This document shows, piece after piece, positions 57,301-64,000 of a stretch of 64,000 nucleotides of DNA. The notes beneath the pieces are model-generated. The model had not been told where the DNA came from and ran no database searches. It worked only from the letters and a program-made list of their open reading frames with translations. Location of the stretch: positions 1,922,001 to 1,986,000 of the forward strand of contig CM039004.1 of the NCBI GenBank assembly GCA_017499595.2, written 5' to 3'. This DNA comes from Psilocybe cubensis. Lineage: Eukaryota. Position numbers and translations under genes: made by a program. Numbering within the stretch: the stretch's first letter is position 1; each line of letters opens with the position of its first letter.

Positions 57301-57731
57301 ACCTTTTGAAGGGGCTTGCTTCCAAGTTAGAGGAGATGGACCCTGTGGTTGTTCCTCAAGGTCTTGATCATGAAGGCCCGTACGCTGAAATTGTCGTACC
57401 GGAATACTTCCCGCCAGGGAGCATCATGGTCTTTGAAACTCAACTGCAGCAGCATGATTCCTCACTCGACGCATTCTGTGCTTCTGGTGCTCAGGAGGCA
57501 TTTAGTGAAGTCGATTTGGTGGATTTGAACGTGATTTTACACCGTGCAGATGTTGAAGAGCGGGACGCGACTGCGGGTGTGTTTGGCACTTATGATGTCC
57601 CGGGTTTAGGAAAATTGGTGTATTGCGGGTTGGAAGGGTGGATGCATTCATTGAGACATATTATGCGGTATAACGATCTTGGACATCCGCTTTGTGCTCA
57701 TCTGAGAGATGGAAGTTGGGCCCTCGATTAT
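54306..57731 (+). pseudogene. GDB1: Glycogen debranching enzyme (AGL/Gdb1), 5' part; coding exon interrupted by an LTR retrotransposon
   Basis: SKWMGP, LHYTPLQERGESDSPYSI, DVVLNHTAN, YLRREVIVWGDCVKLRYG, GFRIDNCHSTP, AELFTGS, YDLTHDNE and NDLGHPLCAHLRDGSWALDY, then an abrupt switch to LTR sequence. The C-terminal glucosidase domain is absent from the window. Confidence 0.9.
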
Positions 57732-57904
57732 TGTTAGAGTTCCCTCTAACGTAGACACACACACGTGCCTGTAGTCACATATCACACAGTATTTGTAGAC
57801 ACACCCGTAGCTACGTAGCCTCAGTTCCTTCTTTGTTAGCACACCCAACACGTTCTGGTCCTTCGTCTCTCTCTCCCGCCTCGTCTCCGGGTCTCCTCCT
57901 AACA
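57732..57904 (+). repeat. 5' LTR (~173 bp, TGTTAG...CTAACA)
   Basis: Start fixed by identity with the 3' LTR start. End inferred from CTAACA (57899-57904) followed by the putative PBS. An alternative end at 57923 cannot be excluded. Confidence 0.7.
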
Positions 57905-58451
57905 TCAAGAAGGAACTCTAACACATTCAAAACATCCTCTCTCATCGCCTTTTGGCATTTCAATACCACCGTTTCCCAAACTGCCTGGACTACCTCGTTC
58001 CCCTTCGATCCTGCCCATCCAGCAGGATATCGAAGCCTGTACCGACACTTGTGACCGCTACTCTTGGCAATTATTTTTTTTGCAAAGAGACCTCTTGTTG
58101 CACGAAGAAACCCTGCGTATTGCTTCCAACCAGGGTGCATCTTTTGATACCCTTCGGCGACTTACTGCTGCTGTTATAGACTGTCAACGGTCAATCTCAC
58201 ATACCAGAGACCTTCTCGCTTCCGCTGAAAGACAGTTGCGTTACCTACACGACCAGGCTGATCGCGTTCGCGACCTACAAGATTGTCTGGCTACTCTGTC
58301 TCGCCGCATTGATAATCTGGCTTTTACCACCTCTCTTAGCCCTGCTATTTTGTCTGGACTTCACGCCCGCCTTGACGATATTCTCAGCTCTCCTCTCTTC
58401 TCCAGGTCCTCTACCCCAGACAGCTTACCTGACCTTGAACCCTCCGATTAG
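57903..58451 (+). CDS. Extra ORF upstream of gag, no ATG, predicted coiled coil
   Basis: Stop-free from 57903 to TAG 58449-58451. Candidate starts are CTG 57981 or TTG 58080. Heptad-like sequence RDLLASAERQLRYLHDQADRVRDLQDCLATLSRRIDNL. Confidence 0.5.
   Translation, partial: HQEGTLTHSKHPLSSPFGISIPPFPKLPGLPRSPSILPIQQDIEACTDTCDRYSWQLFFLQRDLLLHEETLRIASNQGASFDTLRRLTAAVIDCQRSISHTRDLLASAERQLRYLHDQADRVRDLQDCLATLSRRIDNLAFTTSLSPAILSGLHARLDDILSSPLFSRSSTPDSLPDLEPSD
57907..57917 (+). promoter_or_regulatory. Self-priming primer-binding site (Tf1/sushi type)
   Basis: AAGAAGGAACT is the exact reverse complement of AGTTCCTTCTT at 57823-57833 inside the LTR. No TGG-type tRNA PBS is seen. Confidence 0.7.
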
Positions 58452-58547
58452 AAGCGCATATATTCACCCTTTTGGCGCATACACCCACCCTCTCTGTTTT
58501 TTTCTCTTTCCTTTTTTTAATTCGCTTCTCGCTTATCGTTTGCACTC

Positions 58548-59732
58548 ATGCCTCCCGGAAAAAGTAAAGGTCGTTCGGTCTCCCCCCGTCGTGGTCGTGA
58601 CGGTAGTGATGACGACACTGTGTCCCGAATTGACCCTGCCATTATCGCTCTCATTAAGGCTAGCCAGGAATCCAATAAAGAAACTATGAAAGATATTCTC
58701 GAACTGTCGCGTATACAAGCCGAAACTATGTTCAAATCATTCCTCGCGTTACCCCAACTCCAAACCTCTACCCACTCCTCTGCGACTACCTCTACCGCCC
58801 GCTCTGGTGATTCACGCGCTTATAAGGTGCCCTTTCCAGGTGCCTTCGACGGCTCCTCTGATACTGTCGAAGACTTGCTGGCCTCATGGCGTAACTTTTT
58901 TCACTCCGACCCCGAAGCATACAAAACCACTGATTCCAAAGTACGCACCGCTCTCAGTTCTTTCAAGACCGGCACGCCCGCTGTCTGGCGTAACCAGCTC
59001 ATTGAAGAGCTAGAGTCTGGGCAATGCGTCTTAACCAACTGGTCCGACTTTGAGGAGCGCGTGAAAGACTCCTTCCTGTTCCATTTCTCGCAACAACGCG
59101 CGGCACGCGAGATCATGTGCATCCGTCAGAACTCCACGCCCACTCAAGAGTTCATTATTATCTTCGAGAACCTTGCCTTTCGCTCCAAGTTTAACGACGA
59201 AGCGTTGATCCAATGCTTCAAAATGGCCTTGGATAAGCGTATTATGGAGGAGATTGGACGAACACACCGTGAGATGCCCACATTCGCGGAATGGAAGAGT
59301 GCCGCAATCTTGATGGCTCACAGACTGCGTGAGACTGATGCCACGGTGACTCCGGTCGTCAACACCACCGCCACCTGGCGTCCTCCCCCTTCTTTCACCT
59401 CCACCCCTTCCACTGTTCAAAAGTCTAGCAACCCCCGCCCCGCTGCTCCTGCCCCCAACGCGACTCTACCTGCAAACATCTCCGCTGCTCCGAATCGACG
59501 TGCCGCCCTGCCCTGCTTTAACTGCGGCGTATTTGGCCACTTCATGCGAGTCTGCCCCAAACCCAAAGATCTCGAATTCCAACGCAAATCACGCGCAAAA
59601 CTGGAACGAGCTCGGGCCGTCCTCGAGTGCTTTGATGCTTTGCCTGATGACGACAAGCATGAGATTCGATGCGTTGATGTTGACGAAAGTGCCTTGTTTG
59701 ATGATTCGGATTTTGTTTCTTGCGTCGAGTGA
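58548..59732 (+). CDS. gag: Retrotransposon Gag with CCHC zinc knuckle
   Basis: 394 aa. FPGAFDGSS..KVRTALS..WSDFEERVKDSF..IRQNSTPTQEFIIIFENL capsid-like region, and zinc knuckle CFNCGVFGHFMRVC. Confidence 0.92.
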   Translation: MPPGKSKGRSVSPRRGRDGSDDDTVSRIDPAIIALIKASQESNKETMKDILELSRIQAETMFKSFLALPQLQTSTHSSATTSTARSGDSRAYKVPFPGAFDGSSDTVEDLLASWRNFFHSDPEAYKTTDSKVRTALSSFKTGTPAVWRNQLIEELESGQCVLTNWSDFEERVKDSFLFHFSQQRAAREIMCIRQNSTPTQEFIIIFENLAFRSKFNDEALIQCFKMALDKRIMEEIGRTHREMPTFAEWKSAAILMAHRLRETDATVTPVVNTTATWRPPPSFTSTPSTVQKSSNPRPAAPAPNATLPANISAAPNRRAALPCFNCGVFGHFMRVCPKPKDLEFQRKSRAKLERARAVLECFDALPDDDKHEIRCVDVDESALFDDSDFVSCVE

Positions 59733-62700
59733 GTAGTACGTCCTCGCCGCTTCTGTACAACAACCCTGTAATTACTCCCAAATTGCATGTTGCATTGTCT
59801 CCAAAATCCGTACCTCTGCCCGTGTTACCTGTTTACGCGACCCCTCAACCTTCATTATCCAATTCTGTATTGACTCCTGACAAGCCCTCTTCTTCAACAA
59901 CATCACCCAACTCCGACTACCCGACACCAACACTCCTGCCCGCGCACCCACAACCTCCAACTATGGCACCCGATTGCATTCCATATTCAGACCTCTTTTT
60001 ATCCTGTCCTGAGGATGATCCACCAGAGCTGCAAGCCCCAGATGCCTCTGATGATTCGGATGAAGATTCGCCAACCAAGCCTGCTCAACAAACCTCCGCC
60101 CACGATGATGCATCTGTCTCTATGACACACGATGCAAGTCCACCACCGGCCCCACGCGACTCTCTACTTTGCAGCCCGCCCGTCGCTGACCACACAGACT
60201 GCCCGCCTTCAATCCCTACACCTGTCCGCACCGTCCTGTGCAACTTGCGCCGATTACGCAGCACGCCTTGGCGAACCGAGAGCCTGCTCAAATCCTGGGC
60301 CCCAAAGGAGCGTTGGGACGACATTGACGATGATCTGATTGCTGCTCTTTGCGATCTCCCCTGGACCGACGCCGCCAAAGTCCTCCAGCAGCTCAAGAAG
60401 CCCCGCGACTACATCTCCCGCATGGGGAGTAAATGCCTTGACATTCCAATGTCGGCTGCACCCCCAGGCTCGACCTCTTTGGTGTCGCTGAAAGCGCTCT
60501 TAGACAGCGGTGCCACTGGTTGTTACGTGCACTCCGATTTTGTCAAACTCAATGGATGGGTGACTGAGCGGCTGCCCCACCCCGTTAGCGTTTACAATGC
60601 AGACGGAACTCGCAATGCCAACGGTGCTATCACAGATGTTGTTTACCTTGTCATCCGCATTGAAAACCATGTTGAGCGACTCCGCCTTTCAGTCACCAAC
60701 ACGGGATCATCTTCCCTCATCCTCGGGCACTCCTGGCTCTGGTTCCATAATCCGCTTGTTGACTGGCGAGAGGCCAAGCTCTGCTTTGCACGCTGCCCCA
60801 CGTCCTGTGGTGCTGACGTGCTGCCGACTTCGCACCCTGATGGCGAAACCGTGAATGTTTGCCGCGAAGGACCCCAGCTCCGTGAAGACGACATCTTTGA
60901 TGACAGCCCGGGCCCCTTCACGCCGGTCTCTGCTGCGGAATGGGCTGACGCCTTTGCTGGTGAACTTGCCGATGGTGAATCGATGTGCGCGGTTGACCTC
61001 AATGAGTTCACGTCCGAACAAGTCCATGGCTCATGCGACCACCGCATTTCTCACTTTTTGCGAACTCAACGTGAAGCAGCTTCATATCCCGACCGCTACC
61101 TGAAGGAATTTGCACCTGTTTTCTCCAAAGAGGAGTTTGACGAGCTCCCACCCCGTCGCCCATGGGATCATGCTATTAACCTGAAACCAGATGCAAAGTC
61201 GTTCAAAGCAAAGCCGTACCGTCTGTCGCCCGCTGAAACCTCGAAGGTCAAGGAATGGATAGAAGAGGAAAAACGCACTGGCCGTATACGGGACTCCATC
61301 TCTCCCTATGCCGCCCCTTTCTTCTTCATCCAGAAAAAGGATGGCTCACTGCGCCCTGTGCAAGACTACCGACGCCTGAACGATATCACGATCAAGAACC
61401 GCTATCCATTGCCGCTCATCTCTGACCTCATGGACAAGCTTAAAGGCGCGAAAGTATTCACCAAACTTGACGTCCGCTGGGGTTTCAATAACATTCGTAT
61501 CAGGGAAGGCGATGAGCACAAGGCTGCCTTTATCACGGAGTTTGGACTTTTTGAGCCTCTTGTAATGTTCTTTGGATTGACAAACTCACCAGCTACCTTC
61601 CAGAATATGATGAACGATCTGTTCAAGGATCTCATTGCTGGCGGCCATGTCGTGATATATATGGATGACATCCTCATCTTCACTGATGATGTCCAGTCCC
61701 ATCGACATCTTGTCCGCAATGTCTTGCAGATTCTGGAGGACAACAAGCTTTATCTGCGGCCAGAAAAGTGCTGTTTTGAGCAGGACCGTGTGGAATACTT
61801 GGGCGTCATTGTCGGCCACGGGAAAATGTCCATGGATCCCAAGAAAGTTGACGCTATCACCTCTTGGCCAATCCCGCGCTGTCGTAAGGACGTCCAACAG
61901 TTCCTCGGTTTCGTCAACTTCTACCGTAGGTTTATCAAGAACTTCTCCCGCATTGCCGCTCCCCTGCATGCCCTGGGTGGTTCGGCGCCTTGGGTATGGG
62001 ACAATTTGTCAACATCCGCCTTCAACGAGCTCAAATCCGCCTGCGCTTCACACCCGGTGCTACTTCTTCCCCGCGACGGTGCCCCATTCCGCATAGAGGC
62101 AGACAGCTCTGGATACGCAACCGGCGCGGTGCTCAGCCAATTTGTTGACAATTCCTGGCAACCGGTCGCGTTTGCTTCAAAAGCCCTCAGTCCCGTTGAG
62201 CGCAACTACGAGATACATGACCGCGAACTACTGTCAATCATGAGGTCTCTCGATGACTGGCGACGCTACCTCCACGGCTCCGATTCTCCTGTTGAGATCC
62301 ACACCGATCACAAGAACCTTCAGTATTTCATGACCGCTCAGAAATTGAACCGTCGTCAGGCTCGCTGGTCCCTGCAGCTCGCTGAATTCGATTTCGTACT
62401 CGTCCACAAGCCAGGCCCGACCATGATCTGCGCAGACTCGTTGTCCCGCCGCCCCGACTACGATAAAGGTGTTGGCGACAACGAAAACGTCACCTTACTG
62501 CGCCCAGAACACATTCGACGTACTGCTGAATGCTCAATTGGGGATGACCCCGTCCTGGCTGACATTCGAACTCACCAGCACCAAATCACTGAAATGTGGG
62601 AAAAGCACAAGAACCTGCCTGGCTGGTCCCTCCACGACGGCTTGCTTTCATGGCATAACCGAATCTTTGTGCCAAACAAAGGCAACTTGCGTCAACGAAT

Positions 62701-63973
62701 ACTCGCCGACTGTCATGATCACCAATCCGTAGGCCACCCTGGCCGGATGAAGACCATGGAACTCGTCCTGCGCGACTATTGGTGGCCGTCACTATCAAAA
62801 GACGCGAAGCGTTACGTTGATGGATGCCCCACCTGTCAATCAACTAAGCCTCTGAGGATGGCGCCCGCGGGCCTACTGACCCCCAACGAAATCCCTTCCT
62901 CCAATTGGGAGATCATTTCCTGTGATCTCATCGTGGACTTACCTAAATCTCGCGGCTTCGATTCGATCTTTGTCGTCGTCGATAGACTCTCAAAAATGGT
63001 TCGTATCATCCCATGCAAAAAGTCAATCACTTCTGAGGGTCTCGCGCGCCTCTTCCGCGACCATGTCTGGAAAGACTTCGGACTGCCACGACGCATCATC
63101 TCCGACCGTGGTTCAATCTTCCTGTCAAACTTTACTCGGGCCCTCAACGACCTGCTAGGCATTTCACAGAACGCGTCCACCGCATTTCGACCTCAAACAG
63201 ACGGACAAACTGAGCGCGTCAATCAAGAAATCGAACAATACCTACGGATCTTTGTGAATAACAGGCAAAATGATTGGGTGGAATGGCTTGCATGCGCCGA
63301 ATTTGCTATCAACAATAAGATTCACTCGTCCACTGGCTTCTCGCCCTTCTTCCTAAACTATGGCTCCAACCCCCGCCGAACCCTGCAACCCGCACGCCTC
63401 TCGGACGACCGTGTCCCCAAAGCTCTTGAATTCGCCTCTCAAATGGATTCCCTCGCGAAGGAATCCGCTTCAGCGCTAAACCTCGCCGCTGATGCAATGA
63501 AGCGATCCTATGACACCTCTCACCGCGCTCCACCCGTCTTCAATGTTGGCGACATGGTGATGCTCAGCGCCTCCGACATCAAGTCCTCACGTCCGTCTAA
63601 AAAGCTCGATGTTAAGCGTCACGGACCTTTTCCTGTGACGAAACGCGTTGGCATCCAGTCTTACACCCTCGACCTACCGGCCTCGTGGTCGATCCACCCT
63701 ACTTTCCATGTCTCTAAACTCTCCCGTTTCATACCAGCAGAATTCGATTCCCAAACTTCACCCGCGACACCAACACCTCCCCCCGCGTTACCACCCCCAG
63801 ACATTGCAAGTGTGCTCGGCCACAGGGCCCTGCGCAGTGGAACACAGTTCCTCGTGCTGCTCGATGGCTGCACAGAGGAAGACGCTTCGTGGTCAAGCCA
63901 CTCATCCTTCCCTAACTCTGAAGTACTAAACAATTACATACGCCTCCACAACATCCCGGACGCCCACCTTTAA
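59705..63973 (+). CDS. pol: Pol polyprotein: aspartic protease, reverse transcriptase, RNase H, integrase, chromodomain-like tail
   Basis: LLDSGATG (~60500), YMDD (61658-61669), EADSSGYATGAVL / NYEIHDRELL, HHCC (HDHQSVGH..CPTC), IISDRGS, QTDGQTERVNQ, HGPF, and C-terminal IASVLGHRALRSGTQFLVLLDGCTEEDASW. Uninterrupted over more than 1400 codons. Confidence 0.96.
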   Translation, partial: FGFCFLRRVSSTSSPLLYNNPVITPKLHVALSPKSVPLPVLPVYATPQPSLSNSVLTPDKPSSSTTSPNSDYPTPTLLPAHPQPPTMAPDCIPYSDLFLSCPEDDPPELQAPDASDDSDEDSPTKPAQQTSAHDDASVSMTHDASPPPAPRDSLLCSPPVADHTDCPPSIPTPVRTVLCNLRRLRSTPWRTESLLKSWAPKERWDDIDDDLIAALCDLPWTDAAKVLQQLKKPRDYISRMGSKCLDIPMSAAPPGSTSLVSLKALLDSGATGCYVHSDFVKLNGWVTERLPHPVSVYNADGTRNANGAITDVVYLVIRIENHVERLRLSVTNTGSSSLILGHSWLWFHNPLVDWREAKLCFARCPTSCGADVLPTSHPDGETVNVCREGPQLREDDIFDDSPGPFTPVSAAEWADAFAGELADGESMCAVDLNEFTSEQVHGSCDHRISHFLRTQREAASYPDRYLKEFAPVFSKEEFDELPPRRPWDHAINLKPDAKSFKAKPYRLSPAETSKVKEWIEEEKRTGRIRDSISPYAAPFFFIQKKDGSLRPVQDYRRLNDITIKNRYPLPLISDLMDKLKGAKVFTKLDVRWGFNNIRIREGDEHKAAFITEFGLFEPLVMFFGLTNSPATFQNMMNDLFKDLIAGGHVVIYMDDILIFTDDVQSHRHLVRNVLQILEDNKLYLRPEKCCFEQDRVEYLGVIVGHGKMSMDPKKVDAITSWPIPRCRKDVQQFLGFVNFYRRFIKNFSRIAAPLHALGGSAPWVWDNLSTSAFNELKSACASHPVLLLPRDGAPFRIEADSSGYATGAVLSQFVDNSWQPVAFASKALSPVERNYEIHDRELLSIMRSLDDWRRYLHGSDSPVEIHTDHKNLQYFMTAQKLNRRQARWSLQLAEFDFVLVHKPGPTMICADSLSRRPDYDKGVGDNENVTLLRPEHIRRTAECSIGDDPVLADIRTHQHQITEMWEKHKNLPGWSLHDGLLSWHNRIFVPNKGNLRQRILADCHDHQSVGHPGRMKTMELVLRDYWWPSLSKDAKRYVDGCPTCQSTKPLRMAPAGLLTPNEIPSSNWEIISCDLIVDLPKSRGFDSIFVVVDRLSKMVRIIPCKKSITSEGLARLFRDHVWKDFGLPRRIISDRGSIFLSNFTRALNDLLGISQNASTAFRPQTDGQTERVNQEIEQYLRIFVNNRQNDWVEWLACAEFAINNKIHSSTGFSPFFLNYGSNPRRTLQPARLSDDRVPKALEFASQMDSLAKESASALNLAADAMKRSYDTSHRAPPVFNVGDMVMLSASDIKSSRPSKKLDVKRHGPFPVTKRVGIQSYTLDLPASWSIHPTFHVSKLSRFIPAEFDSQTSPATPTPPPALPPPDIASVLGHRALRSGTQFLVLLDGCTEEDASWSSHSSFPNSEVLNNYIRLHNIPDAHL
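59708..59714 (+). promoter_or_regulatory. Putative -1 ribosomal frameshift site G GAT TTT
   Basis: Lies in the only gag/pol overlap (59705-59732). pol is in the -1 frame. Confidence 0.7.
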
Positions 63974-63984
63974 GAGGGGGGTGA
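63972..63984 (+). promoter_or_regulatory. Polypurine tract
   Basis: AAGAGGGGGGTGA immediately before the 3' LTR. Confidence 0.85.
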
Positions 63985-64000
63985 TGTTAGAGTTCCCTCT
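63985..64000 (+). repeat. Start of 3' LTR
   Basis: 16/16 identical to 57732-57747. Confidence 0.9.

Follow-up and report, generated by a model that had tools for sequence, protein, structure and literature searches.

A Ty3/gypsy retrotransposon of Psilocybe cubensis has an AUG-free leader with an open reading frame that may encode an accessory coiled-coil protein

The small upstream proteins of rice tungro bacilliform virus (RTBV) and the badnaviruses include coiled-coil, virion-associated proteins. Plant Ogre elements carry a sense ORF1 upstream of gag, and murine leukaemia virus makes glyco-Gag, a second product of its genomic RNA, from a CUG that lies upstream of the gag AUG and in frame with it. 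Passages of a review describe how open reading frame (ORF) I of RTBV starts at an AUU, where about 10% of ribosomes initiate while the rest scan on, and how ORFs I-II are free of AUG over 900 nucleotides (nt) so that ribosomes reach ORF III (PMC5902531). In the excerpts cited here, plant long terminal repeat (LTR) retrotransposons carry additional ORFs (aORFs) besides gag-pol (PMC7264820), Boty has an extra antisense ORF, brtn (PMC8365987), and Cer1 has an extra ORF, CERV, made from a spliced five-exon mRNA (PMC10309623). Elements of the Tf1/Tj1/sushi type are characterised, in the relevant part of one source, by a primer-binding site (PBS) complementary to an LTR-internal sequence that is taken as the mRNA 5' end, and by the lack of a tRNA-type PBS (PMC4600332). 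Here we analyse a stretch of 64,000 nt of the Psilocybe cubensis genome (GenBank assembly GCA_017499595.2, contig CM039004.1, positions 1,922,001 to 1,986,000 of the forward strand; hereafter the window), in which a Ty3/gypsy element occupies 57732-64000 of the plus strand as a single copy; a second copy was sought within the window and none was found. The leader of this element holds an AUG-less ORF, to which we give an even chance of being a genuine accessory gene, predicted to be translated from a near-cognate start with leaky scanning to gag.

The region between the 5' LTR and gag is laid out as follows.

57905..58547, plus strand: leader from the LTR to the gag ATG, 643 nt, ATG-free in all plus-strand frames
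57903..58451, plus strand: leader ORF, 182 codons from stop to stop, closed by the TAG at 58449-58451
58452..58547, plus strand: pyrimidine-rich spacer, which holds a second in-frame stop (58518) and differs in length between copies

The plus strand is free of ATG over the 838 nt from 57710 to 58547, and its first ATG is that of gag at 58548. For 57824-58547, a base-composition model predicts 7.1 ATG and dinucleotide shuffles 5.5, against none observed. ATG was absent altogether from 0.04% of the mononucleotide shuffles (n = 5000) and from a single one of the 3000 dinucleotide shuffles (0.03%); over this stretch, 11 ATG occur on the minus strand. An earlier note on this DNA had found by eye no plus-strand ATG ahead of gag, and counting and shuffling bear this out: the depletion exceeds shuffle expectation, and does so on the plus strand only. 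The note had also described an open frame of about 180 codons at 57903-58451, in the gag frame but cut off from gag by two stops and a pyrimidine tract. This description holds as well, with 182 codons counted: ORF and gag share one frame (both starts are divisible by 3), and the only in-frame stops between them are the TAG at 58449 and a TAA at 58518. Since the LTR ends at 57904, the ORF begins at the LTR end and crosses the PBS. Because neither the LTR nor the leader contains an AUG, a protein could be made from the canonical RNA only by way of a non-AUG codon. Among the 40 of 379 differing places listed from sequencing reads, the leader has indels only in the spacer, at 58506, 58515 and 58516.

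We searched 1.84 billion representative proteins with the ORF using HMMER (E <= 0.001) and obtained three matches. One is P0003, a chimeric gene model from the same element family, and another is P0006, a protein of 203 amino acids (E 1e-33) whose cluster also holds P0008 (208 amino acids). The third, P0007 (E 1e-05), is a repeat protein with five matched stretches, which we judged unrelated. The source species of P0006 and P0008 is Psilocybe cubensis, as for the window. Their N-termini translate the same LTR-end/PBS sequence in a frame that differs from that of the window ORF; therefore, they stem from a second, diverged element family and not from a host gene. The shared part and its most distinctive segment are:

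57936..58439, plus strand: conserved part of the ORF, residues 12-179, with 80 of 167 aligned residues identical (48%)
58401..58439, plus strand: conserved acidic Ser/Pro tail SRxSTPDSLPxLE, followed by three residues and then the stop

The alignment of the ORF with P0006/P0008 contains a single gap, of four residues and in frame, and both ORFs stop at the same point. Within the tail, S167, R168, S170, T171, P172, D173, S174, L175, P176, L178 and E179 are invariant between the window and its relative. When the window codons were mutated neutrally in silico to 48% amino-acid identity (2000 runs), the frame remained free of stops in 3.7% of the simulations, and the observed conservativeness of the replacements, with a mean BLOSUM62 score at mismatches of -0.55 against -0.99 +/- 0.16, was reached in 0.3% (P ~0.003). 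The frame is thus open and conserved between two diverged families, both from one species and one of them known from its protein alone. Comparison with relatives, which the earlier note had proposed as a check, speaks for conservation in that a homologue 48% identical, again from this one species, has kept frame and end. The accessory protein postulated in that note fared well in one part, as the ORF behaves as selected protein-coding sequence by its homologue, its conservative replacements and the periodicity described below. The other part, a PxLxP motif binding MYND domains, was not supported: the PDLEP of the window reads PELEF in P0006/P0008 and is not conserved.

The predicted structure of the product agrees with this picture.

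58011..58385, plus strand: predicted three-helix core, with helices at residues 37-76, 81-143 and 147-161 (AlphaFold2, two-sequence alignment)

This AlphaFold2 model has a mean predicted local distance difference test (pLDDT) score of 72.9, with 68 residues at 90 or above and with residues 1-33 and 164-182 disordered. The overlapping frame 58180-58686, taken as a control, reached a mean of 55.1 and 17 such residues, although one sequence was set against two and the comparison is imperfectly matched. Hydrophobicity along residues 81-143 peaks sharply at a period of 3.5, which none of 5000 permutations attained, and identity between the two families follows the same period in helix 37-76 (P 0.004) and helix 81-143 (P 0.022); it is not significantly periodic over 147-161, nor over 37-143 taken as one block. 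Hydrophobic positions are identical between the families in 31 of 53 cases, the others in 28 of 72. This 3.5-residue rhythm of conservation is a signature of a protein core and not of a constraint at the RNA level. Together with the three-helix prediction, the period also agrees with the long heptad-patterned helix claimed earlier. Furthermore, codon usage measured against gag and pol gives the whole ORF +0.08 bits per codon and the other frames -0.03 and -0.49; over the last 120 codons the values are +0.13 to +0.18, against -0.07 and -0.65. A complex prediction of Gag 1-300 with ORF residues 34-182 scored 0.12.

On the other hand, searches for a known family returned little. The best Pfam match of the ORF (E 0.049) falls far short of the cut-offs, the best among PDB sequences has E 0.25, and the ESM Atlas gave no usable match. 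Foldseek against PDB and BFVD yielded nothing at E <= 0.001, only generic helical hairpins, and viral proteins gave no sequence or fold match at the same threshold. In word-indexed protein searches, the ORF retrieved only P0006 and five chimeric gene models, all from Psilocybe cubensis. Pattern matches of the ORF alignment to metagenome contigs (46) and to viral contigs (16) were never confirmed, nor were the three of gag to viral contigs. A 21-nt pattern spanning the LTR end and PBS hit three loci in metagenome contigs, all of which proved to be chance matches in unrelated sequence.

Translation of the ORF would have to begin at a non-AUG codon. We list the in-frame near-cognate codons that lie upstream of the helices, together with a nearby hairpin.

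57957, plus strand: ATT, candidate near-cognate start, G at -3
57963, plus strand: ATA, near-cognate, no favourable context
57981..57983, plus strand: CTG, candidate near-cognate start, A at -3; the residue, L27, is invariant
58008, plus strand: ATC, near-cognate, no favourable context
58011, plus strand: CTG, candidate near-cognate start, A at -3
58017, plus strand: ATC, near-cognate, no favourable context
58029, plus strand: ATC, candidate near-cognate start, G at -3 and G at +4; the residue, I43, is invariant
58003..58035, plus strand: 12-bp hairpin starting 19 nt past the CTG 57981 codon, -15 to -17 kcal/mol, z -2.5

The CTG at 57981 with A at -3 had been singled out before, and we find it as described. 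According to a passage of the same review, weak starts are helped by a hairpin about 14 nt downstream (PMC5902531). That the hairpin at 58003-58035 aids initiation is only suggestive.

The remaining features of the element define its class and its probable transcript.

57732..57904, plus strand: 5' LTR, 173 bp, with TGTTAG...CTAACA(T) ends, placed by raw reads and contigs
57823..57839, plus strand: putative R start and self-primer; the 11-mer 57823-57833 and six more bases pair with the PBS region
57907..57917, plus strand: PBS of the self-priming type, 11 of 11 nt complementary to 57823-57833
58548..59732, plus strand: gag, 394 amino acids, with Retrotrans_gag (1.1e-05) and a zf-CCHC knuckle (1.8e-04); ATG context CTCATGC
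59705..63973, plus strand: pol frame with protease, reverse transcriptase, RNase H, integrase, a Tf2-type SH3 and a weak chromo-like end, in the -1 frame relative to gag
63974..63984, plus strand: polypurine tract GAGGGGGGTGA, directly 5' of the 3' LTR
63985..64000, plus strand: first 16 nt of the 3' LTR, where the window ends, identical to 57732-57747

A CCHC Gag followed by protease, reverse transcriptase, RNase H and integrase in this order, LTRs with TG...CA ends and a polypurine tract place the element in Ty3/gypsy (Metaviridae). The pol frame matches RVT_1 (3.6e-35), RT_RNaseH (1.4e-33) and Integrase_H2C2 (1.1e-20), with rve downstream of the reverse transcriptase. Its last 100 residues match Chromo weakly (E 0.14, with 12.5 bits where the cut-off is 25.1), and Chromo is absent from the matches in a general Pfam scan of the element's proteins. 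The gag stop, TGA at 59730-59732, sits within GTGAGT, which resembles a splice donor, with pol already open 28 nt before, in the -1 frame. We saw no clear slippery heptamer in the gag/pol overlap and found no in-phase acceptor within 59760-59900 for an intron from this GTGAGT.

We mapped the LTR by comparing two raw-read DNA runs (X11 and X12) and the contigs of two further runs (X5 and X7) with 57400-64000. A 174-nt contig of X5 spans 57732-57904 at about twice the internal depth, and loose ends occur before 57732 and behind 57904 in X11, X12 and X5. The LTR boundary at 57823 given by the earlier note is consequently replaced by 57732-57904. Position 57823 instead falls on the putative self-primer: the stem between 57823-39 and 57898-917 has 17 bp, is interrupted and reaches -25.3 kcal/mol (z -4.6), and an 11-nt complement between LTR and PBS arose in 15 of 20000 shuffled LTRs. 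Inspection 3' of the LTR revealed no tRNA-type PBS with TGG, and no tRNA genes were found in the window for comparison with the PBS. The end of U5 with the PBS (57887-57916/22) recurs in other contexts, namely in an X7 contig and as loose ends at 57887 and 57916 in the reads, so this U5/PBS module is common to other families. As the self-priming layout is like that of Tf1/Tj1, we place the mRNA start near 57823, a likely position predicted from that layout.

On such an RNA the upstream region is free of AUG and the gag AUG comes first, a layout that fits leaky scanning to gag. We propose that the genomic RNA would start near 57823 and run AUG-free for about 725 nt, so that 40S subunits entering at the cap would scan as far as the gag AUG at 58548. 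An in-frame near-cognate codon (candidates CTG 57981, CTG 58011 and ATC 58029) would be used by a minority, which would make the ORF product, while most ribosomes would leak through to gag, so that one unspliced RNA would yield a scarce accessory protein and abundant Gag. The product, which we provisionally call 'ORF0', would have about 140-170 residues, with a Pro-rich, disordered head, three helices folded as a coiled-coil hairpin and a conserved acidic Ser/Pro tail. Whether it acts with the element's own RNA, with the Gag particle or with a host partner bound by the tail is a guess. Somewhat short of an even chance, in our estimate, is the broader proposal that Ty3/gypsy elements of Agaricomycetes carry an undescribed gene class, an AUG-less leader 'ORF0' that encodes a coiled-coil hairpin with a conserved acidic Ser/Pro docking tail and is expressed from a near-cognate start with leaky scanning to gag.

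Coding exons in the ORF frame occur in five deposited gene models (P0001-P0005), in which host exons are joined to acceptors within the ORF. The head of P0001 and of P0003 is SERF-like, P0002 begins with a bare start, and P0005 is modelled as a glucose-6-phosphate 1-epimerase. The glycogen debranching enzyme of the window itself is represented by P0004, a truncated chimera of 1122 amino acids that ends in the leader ORF and has no GDE_C listed. Such chimeras are evidence that gene finders take the frame for coding sequence; they do not show that the ORF is spliced. One of them is named 'BLOC-1-related complex subunit 5' by UniRef, and no such family is among the four Pfam matches of the ORF (E <= 1). 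Regarding the insertion site, the element lies at 57731/57732, where it splits an exon that codes for the glycogen debranching enzyme. Up to 57731, the host sequence is matched by two contigs, one of 3220 nt from X5 and one of 97.5 kb from X7; past this point the X5 contig continues with a loose end of 255 letters unlike the window, which we read as the uninterrupted gene. The insertion is hence absent from X5 and X7, where the exon is intact; it is polymorphic and probably recent.

Among the 40 of 379 differing places listed, 33 lie within the element. Three of these fall in the leader ORF (two synonymous and one Ala to Ser) and 28 in pol, where 16 are non-synonymous, including a stop, and mostly CpG transitions. 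Such read variants reflect the decay of inserted copies and are uninformative on selection. In X11, 206 of 364 differing places are C>T or G>A, and the stop-creating pol change listed is at 63188; the CpG-biased changes look like methylation-type decay of older copies. We also noted a form with a 216-nt deletion within pol (62745-62962), seen in 13 reads each in X11 and X12, and a few reads that connect 57966 with 63681 across opposite strands. The X11 and X12 strains hence contain rearranged copies.

Several observations weigh against an accessory gene. The sole homologue comes from the same species and was found among database proteins, where relatives with a broken frame are invisible, so that the argument from the lack of stops and frameshifts carries an ascertainment bias; moreover, its ORF is known from protein sequence alone. 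None of Pfam, PDB, the Atlas and Foldseek offered a relative that suggests a function. Whole-ORF codon usage lies below all 17 gag/pol test windows (0.11-0.46), the first 62 codons (-0.03) lack a codon-usage signal, and the head is predicted to be disordered. Finally, an in-frame ATG lies within the LTR of the relative (P0008 residue 1), and the start may ancestrally have been an AUG that was since lost in the window's family. Taken further, this would make the ORF a relic orphaned by the loss of an ancestral ATG in the LTR or near the cap, of a kind that the relative may still use, and by two frame changes near the LTR end and PBS, that is, a recently silenced remnant, not yet decayed, in an element that still transposes. 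P0008 is indeed open from its LTR ATG through the PBS into the ORF, whereas relative to P0008 the window has LTR, PBS and ORF in three different frames and is interrupted by stops at 57900 and 57919. The greater part of the 52% divergence could have accumulated under selection, before a recent loss, and the missing codon bias of the first 62 codons points the same way. However, when P0008 is back-translated onto the conserved self-primer of the window, its ATG comes to lie some 9-11 nt ahead of the predicted mRNA start and may be untranscribed. P0006 and P0008 each have one Met only, at residue 1, and every frame of the window leader lacks ATG, which is what one would see if ribosomes normally scanned past an ORF with a weak start. 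We consider a relic improbable. No greater credence goes to a non-coding leader, a long 5' untranslated region cleared of AUGs for gag and perhaps carrying packaging or dimerisation signals, in which the open frame would follow from a composition poor in purines and the relative would be similar through conservation of RNA. Scanning does demand long AUG-free leaders, and the ORF has neither an ATG nor a known protein family. Its openness is only marginally unusual because the stretch is poor in purines (A 0.20, G 0.16): at least 182 open codons occurred in 2.1% of dinucleotide shuffles (P ~0.02), and another frame of the leader (frame 1) has only two stops. Against a non-coding leader, on the other hand, stand the conservative replacements (P ~0.003), the 3.5-residue period of hydrophobicity and between-family identity, a sole gap that keeps the frame, an end point common to both families, and an AlphaFold2 confidence far above that of the overlapping frame. 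Nor is the leader RNA (57924-58547) unusually stable, with z -0.8 (20 shuffles) against +1.3 for a gag control, and Rfam has no match to the leader at E <= 1.

Two further explanations join the ORF to other coding sequence. The ORF could be a detached N-terminal domain of Gag, joined to it by splicing of the spacer or by double readthrough to yield an extended Gag headed by a coiled coil, similar to Cer1 GAG, whose N-terminus is modelled as three long antiparallel helices in the section cited (PMC10309623). The shared frame and the pyrimidine tract ahead of gag are in line with such a fusion. Nevertheless, by eye we found no near-consensus GT donor near the ORF end and no AG from the pyrimidine tract to the ATG; the only in-frame splice, 58405|58565, starts from a poor donor and would cost the ORF its best-conserved part, the tail. 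Splicing of the ORF into gag, which the earlier note had raised, was thus rejected on reading the sequence for donors and acceptors. Two stops intervene, a fused form would still be AUG-less, the ORF is dissimilar to gag (best E 1.1) and hence not its paralogue, and a search for longer proteins returned two host-gene chimeras and no ORF-gag fusion. These points uphold the earlier statement that the ORF is not a gag extension and leave a Gag domain very improbable. Alternatively, the ORF might act as an exon trap, spliced onto host transcripts through a strong acceptor. A T-run with AG at 58088-58089 (ORF codons 57-62) is the acceptor by which P0001, P0003 and P0004 enter the ORF, giving host-element chimeric annotations, and P0005 uses another. 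The use of two different acceptors is what ab initio callers produce, there is no sign that the models rest on RNA, and the conserved region begins 50 codons upstream of the acceptor, which makes exon trapping scarcely credible. Our preferred reading therefore remains that of an accessory gene with a near-cognate start and leaky scanning to gag.

LTR retrotransposons are usually annotated with gag-pol only, and gene callers that require an AUG miss genes of such a kind; the ORF came to light here solely because chimeric models of host genes end in it. To our knowledge, no leader ORF has been reported in elements of the Tf1/Tj1/sushi type, and term searches of the open-access literature found no AUG-less sense leader ORF in a fungal element. 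Extra ORFs of LTR retrotransposons are already known; what would be new is an AUG-less sense leader ORF in a fungal element. Like the aORFs of plant elements, as far as the cited excerpts describe them, the ORF is additional to gag-pol, restricted to a lineage and without homologues outside its group. It differs from the antisense brtn and the spliced CERV, as portrayed in the same excerpts, by being sense, in the leader and AUG-less. The element resembles the Tf1/Tj1/sushi type, within what the source passages cover, by its 11/11-nt complement between LTR and PBS and the lack of a tRNA-type PBS, with self-priming predicted from these features. Glyco-Gag is an N-terminal extension of Gag uninterrupted by a stop, whereas the window ORF is cut off by two stops and is predicted to give a separate product.

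A close parallel is with RTBV and the badnaviruses (Caulimoviridae), which, in the review passages cited, are likewise reverse-transcribing elements with a small ORF upstream of the capsid-polymerase ORF and an AUG-free upstream region. Our element differs by its fungal host, by being a self-priming LTR retrotransposon and by having no shunt leader full of short upstream ORFs; its ORF and gag are separated by a 96-nt spacer, while the RTBV ORFs abut or overlap. The non-AUG start of RTBV is established, and its counterpart in the window is predicted from sequence. If the ORF is translated, it would add a protein, encoded by a currently moving family and possibly a new factor that helps to assemble particles, handles RNA or interacts with the host. 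The plant-pararetrovirus design of a non-AUG start with leaky scanning would then also exist in a fungal retrotransposon, and the translation strategy of tungroviruses and badnaviruses would have its first counterpart among LTR retrotransposons.

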